A stretch of 51,638 nucleotides of DNA from Candidatus Moraniibacteriota bacterium (GCA_037441965.1 JBBIRD010000006.1:1-51638); one strand, 5' to 3'; shown: positions 3,883-42,227, counted from the stretch's first letter. The notes: a model not told the origin generated them from the sequence alone. Program-made: numbers and translations.

Positions 3883-5358
3883 TTATACTGTTTTAAGGGT
3901 GTATTTTTTTGAGAGAAATAAGAGAGTATTTATCATTCCTAATGTTATCCAGAAAAAAATACCCATCAAATTGGTTTCCAAATATGGTTGTGCTAGAAAA
4001 ACAATCACTTGATACACTACAATAGTAAGCAGAGCGATTCGAAGACCAACAAGAAATGGTAACGAAAGAGAGGCTCGAAATGTTTTGAAACTAAGTGAAA
4101 AAAGAAACAGAAAGAAAAGAAGGAAATTCACTATCCCCATTTGTACAAGAAGAGCAAGCCACGAATTATGGATATTGCGTATCTCAATAAAATCACGATA
4201 ATCCCCTGATTCAACCGGTATACGCACTCCAAATCCAAGTCCTAAAAAGGGACTCTCTGATAGTGCGATAAAAGCACTCCCCCATGTCGATCCACGCCAA
4301 GAAATGCTCGTATCAGTATTGCTCCCAATAGACGAGAAACGAGTTGATACCGCCTCTACAATCGACTGAGTGAAATGACCGAGAGTACTCTGAGGAACTG
4401 CCAGCGTTAAAAAAAGCGAAGTAAAAAAAAGAATACTACTAAAGAGGAAAGTAATAAGAAACATACTCCTCACTCTTGAACGAAGTACTCGGTCAAAAAG
4501 CACTAGATACGAAAAACAAAGCGCAAAAAACATCCCAATCCACATATGGCGCATCAGAGAACCAATGATACCAAAAAGAAATAAAAGAAGTATAAGATAG
4601 AGTAATGATCGATATTTTGCTGTTGCCCAAAAAGTCTCTGTAACCAGCAAACCAAGTAATGCGAGAGAAAAATAAAATGCGTGCGGAAAAGCCAGAATAC
4701 GCACCCCGGAAGTAGAAAGCGGAGTAAATTCAGTCCACAATCCTTCACCACGCACAACACCTATTCCTAAGAAAATAAGCGCGCAGAGAACCGAGAGAAT
4801 AAAATAACGCACAAGACGCTTCACGGAAGCAACATCATCAAATATCTGCGGAAGAAAGAAAAAAATCATTCCATAAAAAACATAATTCTTCCATGTACTG
4901 AAAGCTGTCGTAACACTCTGACTCCCAAATCCAATCATACTTGAAAGAAAATAAACTGTTGTTATAAAAAAGAAAAATAACAGAAGAATATTTGTTGTAT
5001 TGATAATAAACATTCTCTTCTGATGAATCATCTGTATGAAAGTTCCTAAATACACACCGAGAAGTACAATATCAAGAGAATAAAGTTTCACAACATAAGT
5101 ACCAAACTGAATACCTTCAAGAGTAAAAAATCTTTCAAAGAGAATAGTCAGAAAAAGAATACTCCATACTCCTCCTCGTGGACTGATGAGTGCAACAAAA
5201 AACATCGGGATCATCAATAAAGCAATATACCCTGGAAGAAAGCCAAATATCATCCTAAAAACAAAAAGAAAGAGAAAGCACAAACTAATCAAAAGAAAGG
5301 CAGTGTCATCTCTTGTCATTCTCGAATTTATTTTTTGAAATATATTTTCTTCTCGCAT
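3883..5358 (-). CDS. O-antigen ligase/Wzy_C family polytopic membrane protein
   Basis: More than 10 hydrophobic segments with SISWR...W, PFLGLGFG and NIHNSWLALLVQMGI motifs. Start moved to the ATG at 5358 because the longer ORF begins inside the tandem repeat. Confidence 0.8.
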   Translation of the reverse strand: MREENIFQKINSRMTRDDTAFLLISLCFLFLFVFRMIFGFLPGYIALLMIPMFFVALISPRGGVWSILFLTILFERFFTLEGIQFGTYVVKLYSLDIVLLGVYLGTFIQMIHQKRMFIINTTNILLLFFFFITTVYFLSSMIGFGSQSVTTAFSTWKNYVFYGMIFFFLPQIFDDVASVKRLVRYFILSVLCALIFLGIGVVRGEGLWTEFTPLSTSGVRILAFPHAFYFSLALLGLLVTETFWATAKYRSLLYLILLLFLFGIIGSLMRHMWIGMFFALCFSYLVLFDRVLRSRVRSMFLITFLFSSILFFTSLFLTLAVPQSTLGHFTQSIVEAVSTRFSSIGSNTDTSISWRGSTWGSAFIALSESPFLGLGFGVRIPVESGDYRDFIEIRNIHNSWLALLVQMGIVNFLLFFLFLFSLSFKTFRASLSLPFLVGLRIALLTIVVYQVIVFLAQPYLETNLMGIFFWITLGMINTLLFLSKKYTLKTV

Positions 5359-5401
5359 ATATGAGAAATATTCCTTAAGCAATAAACAATTGCAAAAATT
5401 T

Positions 5402-5670
5402 TTTGGAATTTTTATGAAGTCTGACGAAAAATGTGTTTCAGAAAAATTACAAAAGTTTTTTAGGGAGCCATTCAGCAAAATTGCTTTGATGTGGATCGTC
5501 TAAAAACTCTTTGGAATTTTTATGAAGTCTGATAAGAAATGCGTTTCAGAAAAATTACAAAAGTTTTTTAGGGAGCCATTCAGCAAAATTGCTTTGATGT
5601 GGATCGTCTAAAAACTCTTTGGAATTTTTATGAAGTCTGACGAAAAATGTGTTTCAGAAAAATTGCAAAA
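5402..5670. repeat. Intergenic tandem repeat, 108-bp unit, about 2.5 copies
   Basis: ggaatttttatgaagtctga starts at 5405, 5513 and 5621; units are nearly identical. Confidence 0.95.
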
Positions 5671-5676
5671 AAGTAT

Positions 5677-5710
5677 GGTGGATTCCTCTGTTATTTCAGA
5701 AGAACCCACC
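5677..5710 (-). terminator. Probable terminator hairpin
   Basis: ggtggattcctctg/cagaagaacccacc just downstream of the stop at 5719, with a T-run nearby on the minus strand. Confidence 0.55.
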
Positions 5711-5718
5711 AACTTCAT

Positions 5719-6612
5719 TTAGTACGGAATGTTCTGTTTTTTCCCACAAAACATCCCATTTTTGATCGCCCCTTCGTATTGTGCTTTCACGATACGAGCG
5801 ATCATTCCTTGATAGCCCCGCTTCAGCTCGGACTGTTCATCCCAGCCTTTATTAGAGGCTTGAACTGAAATCAGGACATCAGAGGTGGCGCTCATTGCCG
5901 TCGAGAACCAGTCAAGTGTCACTCCAAACCGACCATTACTGATCAATTTTTCAGAGAACGACAACTCTGGGTTCTCACGAGCCACACTCCTTACGAATTG
6001 CTCCGCAATCGGTGTCCTGATGTCATACGGAAGCGCTTTCACACGCACCGTATTCCAATTCGCAAACACCGAAGCGAGTCCTTCCTTGCCACCCGTCGCA
6101 ACCTTCTTCAGTCGCGACAACTCTGTACCGGCAGAGAGTACGACTGATTTCCGATATACACTATCGGAAACGAGTTTCTCTGGTGTCTCAAGAGCGATCT
6201 CTTTTCCATAGAGATCAAAAAGTCTTGAAAAACGAGTACTCGCAAAAGCGCCCACAATCGTCTCATCAGGATTTCCCTCAACGATGAGTACAAGCCTCAG
6301 AGCACACTCGGCGTACCCGGTGTACAACGCTTGAGCCGGATATTCTTTTCCGGTTATTTTCCCAAACGCCATTGCATTGTAACGCATCCGCAGTGGATGC
6401 ATTTCCGCAAACAATCCGTCAGGAAAAGTCCCAAGCACAGCCGTGAAGTCTCCTTCACGAATCGCCAAAGTTTCCTTGATCCCGATAAAACTAATCGGAT
6501 CAAGTGATACTTCAGTTTTGGTACCGTCCTCAACCGCGACCGACATAGTGTTACCACCAAGCGTCGCACACCCTGAAAGCAAAAGTGCTAACAGAAAAAA
6601 TATGATTCGCAT
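5719..6612 (-). CDS. Hypothetical lipoprotein
   Basis: MRIIFFLLALLLSGC lipobox; GGAGGTG SD; 297 aa; higher GC than flanks. Confidence 0.8.
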   Translation of the reverse strand: MRIIFFLLALLLSGCATLGGNTMSVAVEDGTKTEVSLDPISFIGIKETLAIREGDFTAVLGTFPDGLFAEMHPLRMRYNAMAFGKITGKEYPAQALYTGYAECALRLVLIVEGNPDETIVGAFASTRFSRLFDLYGKEIALETPEKLVSDSVYRKSVVLSAGTELSRLKKVATGGKEGLASVFANWNTVRVKALPYDIRTPIAEQFVRSVARENPELSFSEKLISNGRFGVTLDWFSTAMSATSDVLISVQASNKGWDEQSELKRGYQGMIARIVKAQYEGAIKNGMFCGKKQNIPY

Positions 6613-6650
6613 GATGACACCTCCAAAAAAATGAAAAGAACCAGCTCTTT

Positions 6651-6720
6651 GGCATCATTTCTGATACCGCGGGCAGAAGAATAAATCATCACTCTTCCGC
6701 CCGCCATATCACAAAATACC
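6651..6720 (-). promoter_or_regulatory. Long 5'-leader RNA hairpin
   Basis: GCGGGCGGAAGAGUGA/UUAUUCUUCUGCCCGC forms a 16-bp stem whose G-U pairs only work on the minus strand; flanks extend the pairing. Confidence 0.55.
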
Positions 6721-6749
6721 TGCTATTTTATTTTCATATTTGACCACAT

Positions 6750-6778
6750 ATTATACTCTATTTTCGCATAAAAGTCAA
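6750..6778 (-). promoter_or_regulatory. Sigma70-type promoter
   Basis: TTGACT-17 nt-TATAAT. Confidence 0.8.
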
Positions 6779-6779
6779 G

Positions 6780-6810
6780 AGCCCACAGATTCCATTTGGA
6801 ATTGTGGGCT
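6780..6810 (-). terminator. Terminator-like hairpin
   Basis: agcccacagattcca/tggaattgtgggct just after the stop at 6825. Confidence 0.6.
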
Positions 6811-6824
6811 ATTATTGTGGTCAG

Positions 6825-7205
6825 CTATTTCAAGCTAACTTCGAGGGCGCAGCCCTCTTTCGATTTCCGGCATTCTTGCCGGACGCCCTTCATCCCGAAG
6901 CCGTTGCCGGCTGGGGTGATGAGGAGCCACTTCCCAGACCCATCACGGATCTGGAAACGGCCGCCGTTTTCCGACACCTTGGTCAAGATGCCAGAACCGT
7001 TCTTCAACTCCAAGGAACGAATTCCTTGGTGTTGAAAATGCACCAAAGTGGTCGCGGCCGGGATGCCTGTGACCGTGATGGTCACGTCATCACCAGCGCG
7101 CGTGGCGGTGATGTTTCCGCCCGAGACCGCGAAGGTCTCGGCAGAAGCGTTTACTGCAACCAGGGCGGCTGCAGCGAAAAGGAAAGAAAGAACTTTGTGC
7201 ATCAT
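6825..7205 (-). CDS. Hypothetical small secreted protein
   Basis: AAGGAGGTG SD before ATG 7205; signal peptide MMHKVLSFLFAAAALVAVNASA-E; beta-rich mature part; markedly GC-rich codons. Confidence 0.8.
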   Translation of the reverse strand: MMHKVLSFLFAAAALVAVNASAETFAVSGGNITATRAGDDVTITVTGIPAATTLVHFQHQGIRSLELKNGSGILTKVSENGGRFQIRDGSGKWLLITPAGNGFGMKGVRQECRKSKEGCALEVSLK

Positions 7206-7284
7206 ACACCTCCTTAGTGTCGCACGGGTTTTATCGAACAGAGATATTCGTTCGACAGTCCACAAGGAATTTTGTAGACTCCAT

Positions 7285-7313
7285 ATCATACATCCAAAGA
7301 CGAATTTTGTCAA
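7285..7313 (-). promoter_or_regulatory. Sigma70-type promoter
   Basis: TTGACA-17 nt-TATGAT. Confidence 0.75.
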
Positions 7314-7491
7314 TAGGCAAAAATATCTCAAAAAGAAAAAGGGACGATCGCATTGTTATGCAATCATCCCTTCTATTCGATGACGAAAAAACTTTTTCTC
7401 TGTACCAGGCCTGATATCTCGTATGCTTTCACATTGACGGATACACTTTTTATACACCTTAGATAGAGATGAAGTCTTTGACGAACCACTG

Positions 7492-9006
7492 CTATCGCAA
7501 TGGTTGCGATCCTGTCGCCTTAAGAAACTCAACCTGAGCTTCCCTACGATCAGCGTCTGCCTCACGAATCTTCCCACCAAGCTCGACACGAACGAACGCG
7601 CCAATACTCGTGAGATCCGAAGAAGTGAGTGGTTGGTTCAGATGACTCACGCCAAGTGGTACGCTCAGTTGCGGACCAAACATCAGCCACTTGTCGTAGC
7701 GCACCTCATAGGTCGCTTTTAGCCAATTCTGTTCATCCCAGTTGGTAAATACCCAACCACCGATGAACCGCTGACGCCACTTGTTATCATCAGAAAGCTT
7801 CGTTTCATAGAGGCCAGAGATACCAATGGAACCGCGATCCTGAACAGGCTGACCTGCCCACGAAGAGTTGACTGTTTGTCCAAATGACTTCCAGTACTCA
7901 CCGACAACACCAGCGAGGTCACCCTCTTTGTTCAGTCGCTCGGTATAACCAATGTAGGCACCGAGCTTCTTGCCAGTTTGAGTGAAGTGGTACCCAGATT
8001 CAGGGTTTTCTCCCCAAGATTTATCCCAGAGAAAACGCGCTTTCAGATCAAGTGTCGAAAGATGATTCCGATCATTAACCCAATTACGCTGTACCCCAAA
8101 CTGAGGACCAATGCCGAATTCCTGACCTCTATACGCCGATGTCAGTGAATGTCCTCCACCATACATCGCGTACAGGCCTGGTCCCGCTTGCCATTCGCCA
8201 TTCTGCCAGACATAGCAGATGGTTTCACCGTAGAGCCAACGCCCACGATAAACCTGGTTCGTATAGACACCGGCACCGGCTTGCGCCTCACAGCGAGGTT
8301 TGCTCGCTGTTTCCTCCGTTATATGAAACGGGGAAATGGCTTCTGGCTCTGGTTGTGGTTCTGGTACTGGCTCTGGTTGTGGTTCTTGTTGTATTTTCTC
8401 TGTAACGATTTCAGGCACATCAAGTACCCAATTATTACAATTCCTCACCCAGTGGAGTTTCCTCCCTGTAGAGAGAATGTATGTCCGAGCCAAAACCACG
8501 ACCGAACCCGCTTTCCAAGCAGTGATAACATTTCGCTTAAATGATACTTGACCATTCTTGCAAAATGCCACCGCCTCATAGCGTTCACCAGTCTGCATCA
8601 AAGTGTTCTGATGACTGTTTAGCATCATCATTGCGCGCAGATCCTTCTTCTCACTCTCCGTCAGGCCAAGTTTTACGAAGGCCTCTTCATTGAGCGAGCT
8701 CTCAGACCTCCCACCACAATTGGTAAGAGGTGCACCGCCGACGCGGACCCAGCGGAACACATCAGAAACTGATGTTTTGTTATGAACTTTGACATTCATA
8801 ACAGCAGTCGTCCTGATGAGCTCAAGCCGTTGTCCGACAAAAATTTTCGAGCAGTCTTTCAGGTTATTCACTTGACACACCGCTTTCCAATTCTTGCCGG
8901 CAACCTTGCTCAGTGTATCACCAGCTTTCACCGTGTACACCTCCGCGTTTGCCGTTCCGAAGAAGGCAAACAGCATCGCCAGAAAGGCGATTACTATCTT
9001 TTTCAT
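7492..9006 (-). CDS. Secreted LysM-domain protein with Pro/Glu linker and C-terminal beta-strand-rich (barrel-like) domain
   Basis: Signal peptide ending ANA-E; LysM YTVKAGDTLSKVA...NNL...IFVGQRL; linker QEPQPEPVPEPQPEPE; Gly/aromatic-rich amphipathic strands; AAGGAG SD. Confidence 0.8.
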   Translation of the reverse strand: MKKIVIAFLAMLFAFFGTANAEVYTVKAGDTLSKVAGKNWKAVCQVNNLKDCSKIFVGQRLELIRTTAVMNVKVHNKTSVSDVFRWVRVGGAPLTNCGGRSESSLNEEAFVKLGLTESEKKDLRAMMMLNSHQNTLMQTGERYEAVAFCKNGQVSFKRNVITAWKAGSVVVLARTYILSTGRKLHWVRNCNNWVLDVPEIVTEKIQQEPQPEPVPEPQPEPEAISPFHITEETASKPRCEAQAGAGVYTNQVYRGRWLYGETICYVWQNGEWQAGPGLYAMYGGGHSLTSAYRGQEFGIGPQFGVQRNWVNDRNHLSTLDLKARFLWDKSWGENPESGYHFTQTGKKLGAYIGYTERLNKEGDLAGVVGEYWKSFGQTVNSSWAGQPVQDRGSIGISGLYETKLSDDNKWRQRFIGGWVFTNWDEQNWLKATYEVRYDKWLMFGPQLSVPLGVSHLNQPLTSSDLTSIGAFVRVELGGKIREADADRREAQVEFLKATGSQPLR

Positions 9007-12865: not shown

Positions 12866-12969
12866 ACAAAATACATAAAAAATATTTCTTTTATTATAAC
12901 ATATTTCTTATAAAAATGACCAATAAAAAAAGAAGACGAACAAGGAGATTGTTTGTCTTCATTATGAGG

Positions 12970-13042
12970 TGGGTGCGGGGGGAATCGAACCCTCGACCGT
13001 TGGCTTAAAAGGCCACTGCTCTACCGACTGAGCTACGCACCC
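12970..13042 (-). tRNA. tRNA-Lys(TTT)
   Basis: GGGTGCG acceptor stem, AGCTCAGTCGGTAGAGC D-arm, anticodon loop CT-TTT-AA, GGTTCGATTCC T-arm; CCA not encoded. Confidence 0.95.
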
Positions 13043-14444: not shown

Positions 14445-14466
14445 ATCATAAATTAAAAAAATAATG

Positions 14467-14539
14467 TGGTCGCTAGTGGATTCGAACCACTGACCCCTGC
14501 AATGTGAATGCAATGCTCTAACCAACTGAGCTAAGCGAC
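14467..14539 (-). tRNA. tRNA-Val(CAC)
   Basis: GGTCGCT acceptor stem, D-arm AGCTCAGTTGGTAGAGC, anticodon loop TT-CAC-AT, GGTTCGAATCC T-arm. Confidence 0.93.
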
Positions 14540-14558
14540 CGATAAAATAACAAAAAAC

Positions 14559-36056: not shown

Positions 36057-37487
36057 TCATTTCGTTTCCTTCATCACTTGTCCAATAAGAAACTGGAAAG
36101 CGTTTTGTTTCCCTGCACGATAATCAGTTATAGATTTTTCATTTACAGAAAGAACAGTGTCAACAACTACTTCAAGTTCAGAAACATCACTCAATTGAGA
36201 CAAGTTCAGACGCTCAATAATGTGTGATGGATCATTATCTCCACCTTTATACATTTCAGCAAGTACAGTCTGTGCAGCACTAGAATTGATCTTTCCCATC
36301 GCAACAATACCAATAAACTCGGCATAATTCTCAGGAGTGATTTTTATCGTAGTGATATCTTCCCCGTTTTCCGAAAAATATTTTCGAATTTCGGTTAATA
36401 TATAATTTGAAGCAAGTTTAAGTAATCGTTCAAATGGCACTGTAATTTCTTTCGATTTTATTTTTTCCTCAAGTTCACTCGCTACAGATTCAAAGTAAGA
36501 GGCTAACAGTCGATCTTCCGTAAGAGTAACGACATCAGATGCAGGTAATCCATATTCGGATACAAAACGATGAAACTTAGCATCAGGCAATTCAGGAAGT
36601 GTCGCTCGTAATCTATCAACATATTCCTCAGTAAACAGGAACGGTGGAATATCTGGTTCAGGAAAATAACGATAATCATGAGCGGACTCTTTCTTGCGCT
36701 GAGAAACAGTTACTCCTTTTGCTTCATCCCAACCTCTTGTCTCTTGTATAAGGGTCCCTCCTGCTTCGAGAACACTTGTCTGTCTGGTGATCTCATATTC
36801 GATTGACCGTTCTACAGAACGAAAAGAATTGATATTTTTTATCTCTGCTTTTGTTCCTGAGAGCCTATCATCACCTTCTTTATATAATGAGATATTAACT
36901 TCGCAACGCATTTGACCTTTTTCCATATCGGCATCTGAAACATCAAGATAACGAAGTGTTTGACGGAGTTTTTGACAGAAAAGTCTTACATCTTTTCCGT
37001 TAGTAAAATCCGCTTCCGTAACGAGTTCCATAAGTGGCACTCCGGCACGATTAAAATCTACAAGCGTAAAATGTTCTCCTGTTGGATGCATTGATTTACC
37101 AGTGTCTTCTTCAAGATGAATACGAGTGATACGAAAAGATTTCTTCGTTCCATTATCCTCTATTTCCATTACGCCATGCTCACAAAACGGTTCATCATAC
37201 TGAGAAATCTGATAACCTTTCGGGATATCTGGATAAAAATAATTTTTACGATCAAACTTTGACTGAAGTCGTAATGTACAACCAAGCGCTAACCCTACTC
37301 TCTGTACTGCTTCTATAGCCTTACGATTTGGCACAGGCAATGTTCCTGGCTGAGCTGTACAAACAGGGCAAATATTGACATTTGGTGTTTTCTCAAGACC
37401 AAGTCCATTCTTACACGAGCAAAACATTTTTGATGCTGTTTTAAGCTCCGCGTGTATTTCCATTCCTATAGTAACATTGTATTTCAT
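36057..37487 (-). CDS. gatB: Asp/Glu-tRNA amidotransferase subunit B; homology continues past the TGA at 36057 to a TAA at 36006
   Basis: IGMEIHAEL, DRKNYFYPD.PKGYQISQ, HLEED, DFNRAGVPLMELVT, DYRYFPEPD. Confidence 0.97.
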   Translation of the reverse strand: MKYNVTIGMEIHAELKTASKMFCSCKNGLGLEKTPNVNICPVCTAQPGTLPVPNRKAIEAVQRVGLALGCTLRLQSKFDRKNYFYPDIPKGYQISQYDEPFCEHGVMEIEDNGTKKSFRITRIHLEEDTGKSMHPTGEHFTLVDFNRAGVPLMELVTEADFTNGKDVRLFCQKLRQTLRYLDVSDADMEKGQMRCEVNISLYKEGDDRLSGTKAEIKNINSFRSVERSIEYEITRQTSVLEAGGTLIQETRGWDEAKGVTVSQRKKESAHDYRYFPEPDIPPFLFTEEYVDRLRATLPELPDAKFHRFVSEYGLPASDVVTLTEDRLLASYFESVASELEEKIKSKEITVPFERLLKLASNYILTEIRKYFSENGEDITTIKITPENYAEFIGIVAMGKINSSAAQTVLAEMYKGGDNDPSHIIERLNLSQLSDVSELEVVVDTVLSVNEKSITDYRAGKQNAFQFLIGQVMKETK

Positions 37488-37549: not shown

Positions 37550-38113
37550 TCATTTCTCTCCATTTTGAATCTTTTTCACTATTTGATCAACTTGTGCATA
37601 CAACTCTTCAAGAGTTCCATCATTATTAATAACAAAATCCGCGCGTTCTTTCAAGTCACGAATCTGTTTTTCTGTCTCAAGTAACGCATCCTTCTCGAAT
37701 TGTACTTCCGTTTTCATCATATCATCAGTATTCTGGCGTCTTTGTATCAAACGTTTATATCTCGCTTCAGCTGAAGTTTCTACATATACAAGATAAAAAT
37801 GTGTTTCATTTTCCAAATGCACAATATCAGAATATCGACGAATACCATCAACAACCACAAGAGTACTCTCACTTTTCTTCGCCTCCGTCAAAATAACTCG
37901 CGAAAAAATATCTTCGCCAAACGCCTTCCTGACATACAGAGAAAGCTTCGCCATATTTTCTCTATTCTGATCAAAATACAATCGATCCAGTATATCTCGT
38001 AATGGTTGAGAAAAACGAATTGAAGAAGCGTTATATTGTTTGGCAATGTATTTTCCCACAGTATCCTTACCTGATGCTATTTCTCCTGAAATCCCTAAAA
38101 TTATTTTCTGCAT
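37550..38113 (-). CDS. P-loop nucleoside-monophosphate kinase-like protein (dNMP kinase/dephospho-CoA kinase fold)
   Basis: GEIASGKDT, FSQPLR, VVDGIR, ADFVINNDG. Confidence 0.75.
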   Translation of the reverse strand: MQKIILGISGEIASGKDTVGKYIAKQYNASSIRFSQPLRDILDRLYFDQNRENMAKLSLYVRKAFGEDIFSRVILTEAKKSESTLVVVDGIRRYSDIVHLENETHFYLVYVETSAEARYKRLIQRRQNTDDMMKTEVQFEKDALLETEKQIRDLKERADFVINNDGTLEELYAQVDQIVKKIQNGEK

Positions 38114-38135
38114 ATAAAATATTTTTTTAAAAAAA

Positions 38136-38624
38136 TTATCTCTCCATTACAACAAATGAAAATATATGTTCATCATTACTTATTTTTTCTTCACTTATTT
38201 TTTTTGTAAACTCATCATACGGAGGGAAAAAAGTATCAGCATCGTATACCCCTGATACAAGCGTCAAATATAAACGATCCACACGAGGAAGAAATTGTTT
38301 GTAAATACTGGCTCCTCCAATAATAAATATCTCTTCTTTCTCATATTTATTTGCTTCATTTATGGCTTCATCAAGGGATGAAACAACAATACAACCTTCA
38401 GGAGAAAAACCTTCTGTTAGAGATAAAATAATGTTTGTTCGATGAGGCAAAGGTCGTCCAATAGAGTGATATGTATTTTCACCCATCACCACTGTATGTC
38501 CTGCTGTTAATTCCTTAAAATGTTTCAGATCTTCAGAAATGTGCCATAAAAGATGATTATCTTTTCCGATACCTCTCTTCTCATCAATTGCCACAATAAT
38601 ACTCAAACGAGGTTTTTTCATCAT
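38136..38624 (-). CDS. folA: Dihydrofolate reductase
   Basis: IGKDNHLLWHISEDL..FK, SIGRPLP.R.N, IIGGASIY, DTFFP; ATGA overlap with thyA. Confidence 0.95.
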   Translation of the reverse strand: MMKKPRLSIIVAIDEKRGIGKDNHLLWHISEDLKHFKELTAGHTVVMGENTYHSIGRPLPHRTNIILSLTEGFSPEGCIVVSSLDEAINEANKYEKEEIFIIGGASIYKQFLPRVDRLYLTLVSGVYDADTFFPPYDEFTKKISEEKISNDEHIFSFVVMER

Positions 38625-39667
38625 AAACTATTTTTCTTGAGAGTAAATAATGTATTATCTTTCTTCTCAAAACCACCAATATTCGCAATCTCTGCACGAA
38701 TCGCCGGATGAGGATCATACCCTTCGATCATAATATCTTCAAAAACAAAATCATCAATACTCTTCCTTTCGGGATTGAGAACGAGCTTCGGAAATGGTTT
38801 TGGTTCACGAGTCAGTTGCTCTTTCGCTTGATCAAAATGATTGCTATAAATATGGGCATCGCCAAAAAAATGTACAAACTCTCCTGCTTTGAGTCCTGTT
38901 ACCTGTGCCACCATATGAAGAAGCAATGCGTAACTAGCGATGTTAAATGGCACACCAAGAAAAGTATCTGCGCTCCGTTGATATAGTCCCAAATTAAGAG
39001 TGTTGTTATCTGTTACTTGAAACTGAAATGTCGTATGACAAAATGGAGGTACTTCATTCGCATTACCACTTGATGCCATCGCATAAATAAAATCAGGATT
39101 CCATGCAGAAATAACATAAGACTTGCGAAATGGTTTATCTTTCAATCCATCGATCACCCAGGCCAATTGATCGATCTCTCTGCCATCGCTTGCAGGCCAG
39201 CGTCGCCACATCCGTCCGTAAATAGTAACGAGATCGCCCCATTTTTTTACAAATGCATCATTTGATGGAAGTGACTTCAATTTTGTAATAAAATCTTCTT
39301 GTGTCATTTCAGATAATCCTTCATCGGATGCTTGCTTGTTATATCGCTTCCACGCCCATTCGTCCCAAATGTGTACATCATTATCAACAAGATATTTGAT
39401 ATTAGAATCACCACGCAGAAACCAAAGAAGTTCATGAATAATACCTCGATGAAAAACTTTTTTTGTTGTCAAAAGAGGAAAGCCATCAGCCATATTATAT
39501 CGCATCGAATATCCAAAAATTGATCGAATAAATGGTGGTTTCTCGTTTTTCTCTTCATATTTCTTCAAAATCTCCGGGGTAAAGAACACTTCTTTATCTG
39601 ATCCTTTTTCAAGAATCGTTTTTACCATATCAAGATATTGATACTCTGGATGATGTTTCGTACTCAT
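38621..39667 (-). CDS. thyA: Thymidylate synthase family protein (atypical ThyA)
   Basis: FPLLTTKK, ELLWFL.G, IWDEWA, SAWN, CH..FQF, YQRSAD.FLGVPFNIASY, GDAHIYSNH. Confidence 0.92.
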   Translation of the reverse strand: MSTKHHPEYQYLDMVKTILEKGSDKEVFFTPEILKKYEEKNEKPPFIRSIFGYSMRYNMADGFPLLTTKKVFHRGIIHELLWFLRGDSNIKYLVDNDVHIWDEWAWKRYNKQASDEGLSEMTQEDFITKLKSLPSNDAFVKKWGDLVTIYGRMWRRWPASDGREIDQLAWVIDGLKDKPFRKSYVISAWNPDFIYAMASSGNANEVPPFCHTTFQFQVTDNNTLNLGLYQRSADTFLGVPFNIASYALLLHMVAQVTGLKAGEFVHFFGDAHIYSNHFDQAKEQLTREPKPFPKLVLNPERKSIDDFVFEDIMIEGYDPHPAIRAEIANIGGFEKKDNTLFTLKKNSL

Positions 39668-39686
39668 AATATTTTTCACACAAAAC

Positions 39687-40247
39687 TTATTTCTTTTTTA
39701 GAATACGCTTCTTCTCTGGTTCAAAATGAGACCAATTATTCTTACTAAAACGACCAAAATTTTTATAATTATTTTCTACCGGACTTGTTAGTGTTGAAAA
39801 AACAAACTGTGCTATCTGCATACCAGGACGGAGAACTAGTGGTACCCTGTTGATATTTGACAATTCAAGAGTAAGGTTGAGAAAATGTCCCGGATTAATC
39901 AACCCTGCAGTATTATGCACAACTAAACCAACACGCGCCAAACTACTTTTTCCGGAAATTTGAATAAGATAGGTATCGCTCCCTACAAAATCTCGCACCT
40001 TGCCGAGCACTGTTTCTCCTGGGAAGAGATAGAAAGCTTCACCTTCTTTCACATGATGTTCTTTGGTATGAGGAAATATTTTTTTTACTGGATCAATAAA
40101 AGGCGTATTATGAACATCAGTAACAATAAAATCATTATCTAATATCACATCATAACTTACTGAACCTAAACGCTTTGGATCAAAATTTTTAATTGTAATC
40201 GTCCCGTCTTTCACTGCCTGTTTGATGTCTTTATCAGAGAGATACAT
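39687..40247 (-). CDS. dcd: dCTP deaminase family protein (atypical)
   Basis: MYLSD.DI, GKSSLARVGL..H.TAG, LTLEL.N, PGMQIAQ..F. Confidence 0.88.
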   Translation of the reverse strand: MYLSDKDIKQAVKDGTITIKNFDPKRLGSVSYDVILDNDFIVTDVHNTPFIDPVKKIFPHTKEHHVKEGEAFYLFPGETVLGKVRDFVGSDTYLIQISGKSSLARVGLVVHNTAGLINPGHFLNLTLELSNINRVPLVLRPGMQIAQFVFSTLTSPVENNYKNFGRFSKNNWSHFEPEKKRILKKK

Positions 40248-40258
40248 AAAGAAATATA

Positions 40259-40942
40259 TTAAAGGATAGTAAATGTTTTTTCGGTACCATAATATTCTGA
40301 CCAATGCTCGTTGTAATGAGCGAACATACGAGCCAGTCTTTCTTGATCAAGTTCTTGCACTTGCAGTCGTTGCATTGTTTCACGAAGATTTTTCTTCACA
40401 ACTTCTGCTTCTGATCCGTCAGTAACGATTTTTTCAAACTCTGCTATATACCCATAGCCAGCATTTTTATCAATACAAACAGTCATATCTTGAAAGGCAT
40501 ATTCTTTACGATCACGCGACCATTTTGCTTGATAGACACAATCAGAATCAAGGAGCAAATGATCAAGCATATCCAAAGAAAGATCAGGCATTTCAGTTTC
40601 AAACTCGAGACGCGCTGTACCATTAGAACTCGTTGTATCATCAATGGAAGCCTTGATAACGAATAATACTCTGTCGTTTGCTTTTCGTGTACGAATAGAG
40701 ATATTTTTTCCTTCGTACAGAATCTTTTTTAAAGACATTTGTTTTTCTTCGCTCACATACGGTGCAATATGAGAAAAAATCTTCTCTGTGTCCCCTGTAA
40801 TGAAATAATGATTGAGCTGACTACTTTCACCGATACATTTTGTTTCTGCATCAAATGTGTGCATCTTTGTAAGCAAAGCGTCTGCACTCTCTCTACTTCC
40901 AAGTAAAGATTTTATTTCTATCTCGTATTGTTCTGTCATCAT
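40259..40942 (-). CDS. CYTH (triphosphate tunnel metalloenzyme) domain protein
   Basis: ExExK (EIEIK) N-terminal motif, IRTR, LEFE, R.R..Y, D...GYG..AEFE. Confidence 0.8.
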   Translation of the reverse strand: MMTEQYEIEIKSLLGSRESADALLTKMHTFDAETKCIGESSQLNHYFITGDTEKIFSHIAPYVSEEKQMSLKKILYEGKNISIRTRKANDRVLFVIKASIDDTTSSNGTARLEFETEMPDLSLDMLDHLLLDSDCVYQAKWSRDRKEYAFQDMTVCIDKNAGYGYIAEFEKIVTDGSEAEVVKKNLRETMQRLQVQELDQERLARMFAHYNEHWSEYYGTEKTFTIL

Positions 40943-41059
40943 AGAGTACTTGAAAAATGGATAATAAAAAAGCTATTTTACCAGTATATCACAACCTTTC
41001 TCTAAACAAAAGCACAAAAAAAACAGGCTATTTTACTAGCCCGTTTTAAAGAAATAATA

Positions 41060-41749
41060 TTAGAACTTGATCGGAAGACTCGGTCCCATTGTCGAACAAA
41101 TAGATATGGATTTGATCAGCTTTCCTTTCATATTTTCCGGTTTAGAACGATCCAATGTTTCTTTGAGAACAGTATAATTTGCCAAAAGTGCTTCTGAAGA
41201 AAAAGATGATTTACCAATAACTTGATGGATATTTCCAGTATCATCATTCTTAAAACTCACTTTCTTTCCCTTCTTTAACATTTCAACTGTTTCTTTAATT
41301 TTCACCGTTACTGTTTCAGTTTTTGGACTTGGCATCATACCTTTCTGCCCCAAAACTTTAGCAACAAGAGCAAGTTTCGGCATCATTTCTGGTGTTGCAA
41401 GAAGAACATCAAAAGCTTGTCCAGGAATTATCTTACCGTTTTTGATATCAGCAATGAGTTCTTCGCCACCAATAAGATCAGCTTTGGCTTCTTCTGCTTC
41501 TTTTTCTTTTGTACTCGTTACAACTGCTACACGTTTCGTACGACCAGTACCTTCTGGGAGGACAAGTGTCATACGAATCATCTCATCAGATTTTTTCGTA
41601 TTGATACCAAGTCGCATATGTACTTCTACTGCTTCGTCAAAGCGAGCCATTTTATTTTCTCTAATAAAAGCAAAGGCCTCTTCTGGCGTATACATTTTTC
41701 CTGCCTCCATCTTCTCCATTACTTTTTTATAATTTTTGCTTTGTGACAT
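41060..41749 (-). CDS. rplA: 50S ribosomal protein L1
   Basis: FDEAVEVH..LG, LP.GTG, LG.KGMMPSPK, STMGP. Confidence 0.97.
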   Translation of the reverse strand: MSQSKNYKKVMEKMEAGKMYTPEEAFAFIRENKMARFDEAVEVHMRLGINTKKSDEMIRMTLVLPEGTGRTKRVAVVTSTKEKEAEEAKADLIGGEELIADIKNGKIIPGQAFDVLLATPEMMPKLALVAKVLGQKGMMPSPKTETVTVKIKETVEMLKKGKKVSFKNDDTGNIHQVIGKSSFSSEALLANYTVLKETLDRSKPENMKGKLIKSISICSTMGPSLPIKF

Positions 41750-41760
41750 AATATTGTTAC

Positions 41761-41790
41761 GTGGTACAAACGCCTTATCTGGCTCCCACA
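41761..41790 (-). promoter_or_regulatory. L1-binding autoregulatory site
   Basis: GUGGGAG-CC...GG...ACCAC motif between rplK and rplA. Confidence 0.65.
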
Positions 41791-41801
41791 CATTAAAAAA
41801 A

Positions 41802-42227
41802 TTAATCAATTACTTTTATACCCATAGAACGAGCTGATCCTGCGATGATTTTTGTAGCTTGTTCTACAGTATGAGCATTCAAATCTTCCATTTTCTTCTC
41901 AGCAATTTCTTTCACTTGTGCCATCGTTACTGATCCTGCTTTATCTTTGAGAGGATTTGATGCTCCTTTAGCGATACCAGCAGCTTTCTTCAAAAGATCA
42001 GATGCTGGGGAAGTTTTCAGAACAAACGAAAAAGTACGATCTTCAAAAACAGTAATCTCAGCTGGAACAATATCACCCATACGATCCTGAGTTGCTGCGT
42101 TAAACTTCGAACAAAAGTCCTGAATATTCAGTCCGTGTTGTCCAAGAGCTGGTCCGACTGGAGGAGCTGGATTTGCTTTTCCTGCTGCAATCTGTAATTT
42201 TATAACTGCTTTTATTGCCTTTGCCAT
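41802..42227 (-). CDS. rplK: 50S ribosomal protein L11
   Basis: [22 protein letters not shown]. Confidence 0.98.

Follow-up and report, generated by a model that had tools for sequence, protein, structure and literature searches.

We analyzed a putative thymidylate operon in a 51,638-nucleotide stretch of DNA from a Candidatus Moraniibacteriota bacterium (GCA_037441965.1, JBBIRD010000006.1:1-51638; hereafter, the window). The window was contig C6 of an 828,571-bp, 31-contig Moranbacteria genome (G000) that belonged to the Candidate Phyla Radiation (CPR, or Patescibacteria) and was 100% complete by markers. Five co-oriented minus-strand open reading frames (ORFs) were located between rplA and gatB; they encoded a CYTH protein, a dCTP deaminase (Dcd), the thymidylate synthase ThyA, the dihydrofolate reductase (DHFR) FolA, and a P-loop kinase. 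Removal of dUTP is a near-universal function, since the presence of uracil in DNA does harm and thymidylate synthesis needs dUMP as its substrate. On balance, comparison of genomes suggested that it is probably the CYTH protein that removes phosphate from the dUTP made by Dcd, and that CYTH and a variant deaminase (DcdB) form a module replacing the usual dUTPase in this dCTP-to-dTMP operon.

The preliminary description of the window had already proposed CYTH as a non-orthologous dUTP hydrolase. This part of the proposal gained strong support of a comparative-genomic kind, namely from the almost exclusive use of one operon slot, repeated switching of its content, linkage across the CPR, the scarcity of Dut among CYTH genomes in a phylum sample, and a gene fusion; on the other hand, the motifs of the protein disfavored a one-step reaction to dUMP and pyrophosphate (PPi).

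The absence of dut, noted earlier for the operon, was found to extend to the entire genome. The only match to the trimeric Dut family (PF00692) was dcd itself (18.7 bits), and there was no match in the genome to MazG (PF03819), dimeric dUTPase (PF08761), or MazG-like proteins (PF12643). Likewise, when the Dut, dCMP deaminase, and operon-encoded MazG and Tmk proteins of related bacteria were used as tblastn queries, the whole 828,571-bp sequence gave no match. Thus, neither profile searches nor tblastn revealed a dUTPase of the trimeric, dimeric, or MazG type. Thymidine kinase (tdk), CoaE, Cmk (PF02224), and Ndk were also not found in the genome searches, and ribonucleotide reductase, Adk, and Gmk were present. 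The features of the locus were as follows.

40259-40942, minus strand: CYTH protein (triphosphate tunnel metalloenzyme, TTM), 227 amino acids (aa), PF01928
39687-40247 (ATG start), minus strand: variant dCTP deaminase DcdB with NPGH motif, 186 aa, TIGR02274 and PF22769; a longer ORF with a TTG start at 40304 is the alternative
38621-39679 (GTG start) or 38621-39667 (ATG start), minus strand: thymidylate synthase ThyA, TIGR03284
38136-38624, minus strand: dihydrofolate reductase FolA, PF00186
37550-38113, minus strand: P-loop kinase (GEIASGKDT) with nucleoside monophosphate (NMP) kinase fold, of the phage dNMP-kinase-like or UPF0200-like group (dNMP, deoxynucleoside monophosphate)
36057-37487, minus strand: gatB, conserved downstream neighbor, 62-nt gap after the kinase
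41060-41809, minus strand: rplA, conserved upstream neighbor (nusG-rplK-rplA)
41020-41047, minus strand: terminator-like hairpin and T-run right after rplA, 11 pairs with 4 GC, a consensus match only
40983-40991, minus strand: TGATATACT, extended -10-like element upstream of CYTH (about 40 nt from its start), a consensus match only

Distribution of CYTH, Dut, and MazG

We searched 60 relatives gene by gene, including 36 from the same genus, and read 20 loci. The frame nusG-rplK-rplA-operon-gatB was conserved among the relatives. Canonical Dut was present in 21 of the 36 genus relatives, with the order dcd-thyA-folA-kinase-tmk-dut where the contigs permitted it; one of these genomes (G036) had MazG as well. 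Four other genus members (G004, G021, G026, and G029) had no Dut but carried a MazG of 109-134 aa (PF03819, 49-52 bits) at the dut position. Their gene order was kinase-tmk-MazG-gatB (loci L030, L029, L027, and L028, respectively), which suggests that, inside the genus, a MazG-type enzyme has displaced Dut in a separate event. Another eight (G006, G014, G017, G019, G023, G028, G032, and G033) had, as did G000, the order CYTH-dcd-thyA-folA-kinase without Dut or operon MazG. Among these eight, G023 retained tmk after the kinase and had weak non-operon MazG matches of a kind also seen in Dut-bearing genomes. The operon was not found in three genus relatives (G005, G020, and G027), all of them incomplete genomes. 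Within the genus, Dut, operon MazG, and CYTH occupied the same slot and were almost mutually exclusive.

A tree of the flanking genes gatB and rplA, restricted to the 17 genomes with fetched loci, showed the three operon types interleaved. The CYTH label required 6 changes on this tree, and at least 4 of them were forced by well-supported branches. Therefore, the CYTH operon did not go back to one inherited event. Three interchangeable versions of an operon in a single genus represent a clean natural experiment in non-orthologous displacement.

At the level of the phylum, we considered 300 genomes that were at least 90% complete, together with G000 (301 in total). Full-length CYTH (at least 224 bits) was present in 15 of the 301 genomes, distributed over 6 families; a seventh family came from G054 in the relatives' sample. 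About 144 of the 301 genomes had canonical Dut (defined by a best E<1e-15, an arbitrary boundary, plus one full-length 54-bit match), but only one of the 15 CYTH genomes did (G120), versus about 143 of the 286 others. MazG matches were found in 128 genomes: one with CYTH (G097, a marginal match at 5.9e-4) versus 127 of the 286 others. The Fisher p values (8.6e-4 for CYTH versus Dut and 2.9e-3 for CYTH versus MazG) overstated the exclusion because the relatives were not independent. An anti-correlation with dut, proposed earlier as a check, was apparent in the phylum sample. Shorter CYTH-like proteins (about 185 aa, 88-119 bits) without residues 50-78 and the DDTTSSNG loop formed a group that co-occurred with Dut in G145, G239, G254, G343, and G046; it was treated as a different subfamily.

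A scan with one genome per species yielded 476 CYTH relatives, and the following counts refer to the 80 best-scoring loci. They spanned Moran-, Pacei-, Doudna-, Kaiser-, Taylor-, Colwell-, Peri-, and Gracilibacteria and the complete SR1 genome CP006913, with CYTH proteins 48-81% identical to that of the window. Within 4 kb of CYTH, thyA was located in 75 of the 80 loci (some of the other five stopped at a contig edge), folA in 70, and a dcd of any type in 71, with DcdB in 51 and the type found in dut and MazG operons (DcdA) in 20. The kinase was within this distance in 22 loci, tmk in 16, dut in one, and MazG in none. The gene order was folA(-)/CYTH-DcdB-thyA in 25 loci, rplA-CYTH-DcdB-thyA in 10, CYTH-DcdB-thyA without any recognized upstream gene in another 10, kinase(-)/CYTH-thyA-folA in 6, and DcdA-CYTH-thyA-folA in 5. 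Since the linkage of CYTH and thyA survived these rearrangements, it argued for selection. The neighborhood conservation across Patescibacteria, proposed earlier as a check, held for CYTH, thyA, and dcd, which were linked CPR-wide among the best loci.

Moreover, protein P0121 from a Paceibacterota record (414 aa) consisted of a DcdA-type dCTP deaminase (residues 1-185) fused to a CYTH domain (195-414), although an assembly error was possible because the fusion was seen on a single contig. Another protein, a 441-aa 'long' CYTH (P0122), was treated as an over-extended gene call because its N-terminal 220 residues had no family and a low-complexity look.

Predicted chemistry of CYTH and DcdB

The CYTH protein matched PF01928 with 27.2 bits (cut-off 23.2) over residues 82-201, and its relatives scored 40-50 bits. 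No other family appeared in its Pfam scan, and there was no homology to PF00692, PF08761, or PF03819; our claim is that CYTH works like a dUTPase, not that it is a member of a dUTPase family. The residues E7xE9xK11, R84, K97, R111, E113xE115, K140, R143, R145, D158, and E168xE170 were invariant in 45 CYTH sequences, and R86 was kept in at least 90% of them. The AF2 model (pLDDT 92.6) had 8 long strands and a tunnel fold. Foldseek returned 72 PDB matches at E<=0.001 with TTMs first: the best were SaTTM (E 6e-12) and P. furiosus 1YEM, followed by class IV adenylyl cyclases and thiamine triphosphatases. With all metal- and phosphate-binding signatures present and a confident fold model, the protein looked catalytically intact.

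In comparison to known TTMs (SaTTM 7NS9/7NSD, P. furiosus 1YEM, and the NeuTTM/CthTTM type), CYTH shared the ExExK, SxRxR, and ExE motifs, the Lys/Arg ladder, and the eight-stranded tunnel (target-normalised TM 0.69-0.80). In contrast to them, it was only 13-18% identical to any solved member, was locked to thyA, dcd, and folA in CPR genomes, and contained two additional helices (residues 52-77) and a conserved KASIDDTTSSNG loop, both missing from the short CYTH-like relatives. No characterized TTM is known to serve thymidylate synthesis, and no such TTM was found in the literature searched. The likeness to dUTPases (trimeric Dut, PF00692; MazG-type all-alpha NTP pyrophosphatases, PF03819) was that CYTH would take their role, as judged by its position and by exclusion in sister operons. 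However, it had no sequence or fold relationship to them. Dut cleaves the alpha-beta bond and releases PPi, whereas CYTH was predicted to release phosphate (Pi).

Two other functions known for this fold were rejected. According to PMC8233210, cyclases have HF before ExExK, have a small residue in place of the first Arg of xRxR, and carry ExA instead of ExE, and thiamine triphosphatases carry W/YxRxR. The window protein read MMTEQYEIEIK, S-I-R84-T-R86, and E168-F-E170 at these sites and scored 32.7 versus 57.95 for TIGR00318, which did not fit a class IV adenylyl cyclase (CyaB). Its invariant Ser82, at the W/Y position of W/YxRxR, did not fit a thiamine triphosphatase.

The second component of the proposed module was assigned to dCTP deaminases by PF22769 (117 bits) and TIGR02274 (130 bits versus 92.8). 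The best solved relative of DcdB was the M. tuberculosis enzyme 2QXX (102 bits, 166 residues aligned), and the GKSS(LAR), Arg, and TLELSN positions were kept; we take the aligned Ser, Arg, and Glu to be the catalytic residues of Dcd enzymes. In these positions and in its score above the TIGR02274 cut-off, DcdB was similar to Dcd (E. coli 1XS1) and to the bifunctional Dcd-dUTPases (M. jannaschii 1OGH; M. tuberculosis 2QXX). Unlike these enzymes, it had an invariant NPGH(F/Y)L instead of a DPG(W/F)(S/T)G-type motif: LINPGHFLN in the window compared to FIDPGFSGH in M. tuberculosis Dcd. The altered Dcd motif pointed out earlier was thus a conserved property, since N118 was invariant in 50 of 50 DcdB sequences, versus Asp in 18 of 21 DcdA sequences. 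DcdB proteins were 65-93% identical among the genus operons read and 38-42% identical to DcdA, and in the loci sampled here DcdB was found only adjoining CYTH. In dUTPases, the Asp acts as the general base: it activates the water used for hydrolysis and also contacts the 3'-OH. With an invariant Asn in place of this Asp, DcdB would deaminate and would be unlikely to hydrolyze dUTP, so that a separate dUTP-removing enzyme would be needed; sequence as such does not distinguish monofunctional from bifunctional Dcd enzymes.

In the proposed pathway, DcdB would deaminate dCTP to dUTP, and CYTH would dephosphorylate dUTP toward dUMP, with dUDP and Pi predicted as the first products. The second phosphate could be taken off dUDP by CYTH or by a reversible dNMP kinase. 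ThyA, judging by its family, would then methylate dUMP, and FolA would recycle the dihydrofolate. Finally, the kinase, which was a standing member of CPR deoxypyrimidine clusters, may phosphorylate dTMP among other dNMPs.

Several points weighed against the proposed replacement of dUTPase. First, the locus counts did not come from a random sample, and the whole-genome status of Dut and MazG covered the CYTH genomes of two samples, 15 in the phylum sample (G000 included) and 9 in the relatives' sample. CYTH and DcdB always occurred together within the genus, so their effects were inseparable there. Second, by the criteria in PMC8233210, CYTH would be a classical terminal-phosphate hydrolase that places the organic group toward the C-terminal helix, and such motifs predict dUDP and Pi rather than dUMP and PPi. 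SaTTM, the nearest solved enzyme, prefers tripolyphosphate (PPPi) about 19-fold over NTPs. Considering both points, a dedicated activity turning dUTP into dUMP and PPi would be new chemistry for the fold. This was the chief argument against regarding CYTH simply as a new dUTPase. Third, there were counter-examples to exclusivity. G120 and locus L103 had CYTH and thyA together with a Dut-like ORF: kinase-tmk-folA was divergent from CYTH-thyA-Dut-like in L103, with DcdA nearby, and G120 was probably alike. The Dut-like ORF of L103 (7779-8213, 144 aa), located downstream of CYTH-thyA, seemed by eye to have no C-terminal glycine-rich motif of the kind that trimeric dUTPases carry. G046 had a short CYTH-like gene adjoining dut. 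Finally, in G054, L046, and L048, CYTH accompanied a dCMP deaminase while Dcd was missing, so that it cannot be needed there for Dcd-made dUTP. These loci fit an enzyme lowering dCTP or dUTP to the monophosphate, as gp56 of phage T4 does, and an unrelated role fits them as well.

Two of these loci had unusual gene content. The G054 locus (L025) had the order rplA-kinase-dCMP deaminase-thyA-folA-(cytidylyltransferase-like + deaminase)-CYTH-gatB and neither Dcd nor Dut; the ORF between folA and CYTH (5093-5929, 278 aa) was cytidylyltransferase-like in its N-terminal part, and its C-terminal part was a cytidine/dCMP deaminase. The G046 locus (L026; 2008-3024, 6323-7045, and 7110-7667) had, in the space from rplA to gatB, genes for a 338-aa fusion of dUTPase and dCMP deaminase and for a second ThyA-like protein (240 aa; PF00303, 31 bits), along with the short CYTH-like gene and a normal dut.

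Given the predicted release of Pi, we considered a route through diphosphates as possible, with a rather low probability. Here, CYTH would strip the gamma-phosphate from dUTP, and a reversible dNMP kinase would take dUDP to dUMP as well as dTMP to dTDP, so that the pathway would contain no PPi-releasing dUTPase.

It was unlikely, in our estimation, that DcdB (and DcdA in CYTH genomes) is itself bifunctional and makes dUMP directly, with CYTH as an accessory PPPi/PPi-ase or house-cleaning phosphatase. Both Dcd types had their best matches to 2QXX/2QLP (102 bits for DcdB and 173 bits to 2QXX for DcdA), which we take to be a bifunctional dCTP deaminase-dUTPase, and both matched the M. jannaschii enzyme labelled 'dCTP deaminase, dUMP-forming'. 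Moreover, a bifunctional Dcd would by itself account for the missing Dut, and an accessory role would suit both the terminal-phosphate motifs of CYTH and the preference of SaTTM for PPPi. However, in DcdB the invariant Asn replaced the Asp expected to activate water. DcdA was closer to 2QXX, but 25 genus genomes had it alongside Dut or MazG; therefore, it evidently did not make them dispensable. A generic PPPi/PPi-ase would also provide no reason for exclusion by a PPi-releasing Dut or for the proximity to thyA in 75 of the 80 loci, and CYTH was kept in G054, where Dcd was missing.

We also considered a role of CYTH in pool control, in which it would act on another triphosphate (dCTP to dCDP or dCMP for deaminases, or turnover of dTTP) rather than remove dUTP. 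This was improbable in our assessment. The loci with CYTH beside a dCMP deaminase and without Dcd (G054, L046, and L048) and the presence of CYTH together with a Dut-like ORF (L103 and G120) spoke for it. On the other hand, a dCTPase would compete with the neighboring dCTP-consuming Dcd (71 of the 80 loci), and the loss of Dut and MazG in CYTH genomes would be left unexplained.

Kinase, ThyA, and FolA

The P-loop kinase matched phrog_139, 'deoxynucleoside monophosphate kinase', with 82 bits over residues 1-185. It also matched AAA_17 (38 bits), PRK08356 (93 bits, below the cut-off of 189), the T4 DNMK model PF21448 (37 bits, residues 6-69 only, covering the N-terminal 64 residues), and SSO1041 (3LW7; 45 bits, Foldseek TM 0.72/0.78). 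The closest fold to its model (pLDDT 90.5) was 3LW7, which was crystallised with AMP, followed by CoaE, UMP/CMP kinases, and adenylate kinases; 1DEK matched the kinase at its two ends only (E 5e-4) and was outside the Foldseek top 50. The kinase resembled, in part, phage dNMP kinases (phrog_139; T4 gp1, 1DEK) and archaeal UPF0200/SSO1041 (3LW7) in its SGKDT-type P-loop, full-length phrog_139 match, and NMP-kinase fold. Unlike the phage enzymes, it was chromosomal and widespread in the CPR. A CoaE function was rejected on the basis of scores (PF01121, 23.2 versus 27; TIGR00152, 33.3 versus 65.55), conserved neighbors, and CoaE folds that were weaker matches than 3LW7.

The kinase was found in 56 of 61 related genomes, some of them lacking a thyA match (e.g., G039-G041), and in 76 of the 301 phylum genomes (single query). 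In at least 19 of these 76 genomes, from many CPR families, a listed Dut was no more than 1.5 kb away. The kinase directly preceded a Tmk-family gene in the dut and MazG operons of relatives (e.g., G001, G004, G021, G026, and G029). Since it stood beside a true tmk there, it was not simply Tmk. Judging by these neighborhoods, it would be a deoxypyrimidine-pathway kinase and not a plain replacement of Tmk. The kinase adjoined dut even without a nearby thyA, for example in G276 (C9:240031-241000) and G322 (C1:689286-690249).

The absence of tmk that had been reported for the operon was correct in that this gene, in the form found in the operons of relatives, was missing from the operon and from the genome. 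However, a divergent Tmk-family protein was encoded on contig C4: it matched the full length of PF02223 with 36.8 bits (cut-off 27) and TIGR00041 with 37 versus 83. The adk gene gave the only other PF02223 match in the genome, and the kinase itself matched neither PF02223 nor TIGR00041. Counterparts of the C4 protein, 54-70% identical, were present in G033, G006, and G019, and none was found in G014 and G017. G014 (100% complete) had no PF02223 match, and G017 had one P-loop-only match (E 0.0026); both kept the kinase at its operon position. In these Tmk-poor genomes, the kinase was the best remaining candidate for dTMP phosphorylation, and its relation to the phage dNMP kinase group makes it possible that dTMP is among its substrates. 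The weak Tmk-family paralogue (G000:C4:38154-38594; L001 1483-2082) was kept in most genus genomes in addition to the operon tmk.

We therefore regarded as unlikely the complete scheme of the preliminary description, in which CYTH is a one-step dUTP pyrophosphatase forming dUMP and PPi and the P-loop kinase is the dTMP kinase. All the evidence for CYTH as the replacement of dUTPase applies to it as well, the operon-type tmk of relatives was absent from this genome, and G014 and G017 kept the kinase without a usable PF02223 or C4-Tmk-like match. Furthermore, the 82-bit match to phage dNMP kinases, members of which accept dTMP, makes activity on dTMP conceivable. The role of the kinase as the missing Tmk was nevertheless weakened by its position next to Tmk-family genes in the dut and MazG operons, its presence in 56 of 61 relatives including those without a thyA match, and the C4 paralogue above the Pfam cut-off. 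As for CYTH, the motifs disfavored the inverted nucleotide orientation required for attack at the alpha-phosphate.

The idea that the kinase is the missing cytidylate kinase was not adopted, since there was no clear displacement signal. About 22 of the 301 phylum genomes had a strong Cmk match, the kinase and Cmk were present together in G120, G129, and G232, and about 200 genomes had neither. Since Cmk was rare in the sampled Patescibacteria, most of them must rely on a different enzyme to phosphorylate (d)CMP. A search of longer proteins at E<=1e-10 revealed no fusions of the kinase, a negative that carries little weight. Tandem kinase paralogues, arranged head to tail and 27-48% identical to the query, were located in G042 (C153), G051 (C79), G041 (C1), G098 (C8), and G274 (C3), and they hint at subfunctionalisation by substrate.

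ThyA and FolA looked ordinary by their sequences. ThyA matched TIGR03284 with 365 bits, NF002496 with 352 versus 325, and E. faecalis thymidylate synthase 3UWL with 305 bits; it was also aligned to 6AUJ. The catalytic Cys in FCHTTFQF, YQRSAD (RSxD), PFNIASY, and GDAHIY were conserved. The Asn of PFNIASY selects uracil. ThyA had an insert at its N-terminus, another of 8 residues ahead of the catalytic Cys, and Lys in place of the Arg of the aligned structures at two phosphate-binding positions. Thus, altered motifs were indeed present in ThyA in the form of inserts and two R-to-K changes, but the catalytic residues were kept and the phosphate site stayed basic. FolA matched PF00186 with 174 bits, and folA overlapped thyA by 4 nt. 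Only reductive methylation yields dihydrofolate, which requires DHFR, and the overlap fits a dihydrofolate-producing synthase.

The same observations made it very improbable that the operon produces a non-canonical nucleotide through a ThyA-like hydroxymethylase or an unusual substrate, for which the ThyA inserts and R-to-K changes, the altered DcdB motif, and the phage-dNMP-like kinase could be cited: a hydroxymethylase was rejected on the equivalog scores, the conserved Cys, RSxD, and Asn, and the folA overlap, and the same ThyA subtype occurred without CYTH in G038, G049, and G056. The earlier suggestion that ThyA might use an unusual sugar or other intermediates found no support, given the conserved catalytic residues and the overlap.

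Significance and other features of the window

No description of the CYTH-thyA-dcd linkage was found in the literature searched. The nearest published statement was a one-sentence suggestion on jumbo phages in Iyer et al. 2021 (PMC7824862). That suggestion concerned phages, whereas a tblastn search of 50,697 phage records with this CYTH had no match; PHROGs contained no family for it. If our interpretation is correct, CYTH would represent a further, structurally unrelated class of enzymes for dUTP removal. It would also be the first physiological role for a large orphan CYTH family, comprising 3,341 or more clusters at E<=1e-10, whose names among those listed were only 'CYTH domain-containing', 'hypothetical', or 'adenylyl cyclase'. 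The routine mis-annotation as class IV adenylate cyclase would then be corrected, and an apparent gap in metabolic reconstructions of Patescibacteria would be filled.

The layout of the operon agreed with the preliminary description: the five co-oriented genes were separated by 11, 19 (from the ATG at 39667), -4, and 22 nt, and the extended -10 reported near 40985 was present as TGATATACT at 40991-40983 on the minus strand. In a promoter scan that gave 23 promoter-like sites versus 15.3 expected, a site TAGAGA-18-TAAAAT with TG overlapped this element, which is not evidence of function. The hairpin at 41047-41020 set the ribosomal-protein genes apart from the operon. There was no terminator-like site in the 62-nt gap between the kinase and gatB, and gatB is possibly co-transcribed with the operon.

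Elsewhere in the window, the GC content was 0.48 at positions 6001-8000, compared to about 0.36-0.39 in the rest, and no rRNA or Rfam family was found there. Two ordinary tRNA genes, tRNA-Lys(ttt) at 12968-13042 and tRNA-Val(cac) at 14466-14540, were both located on the minus strand.

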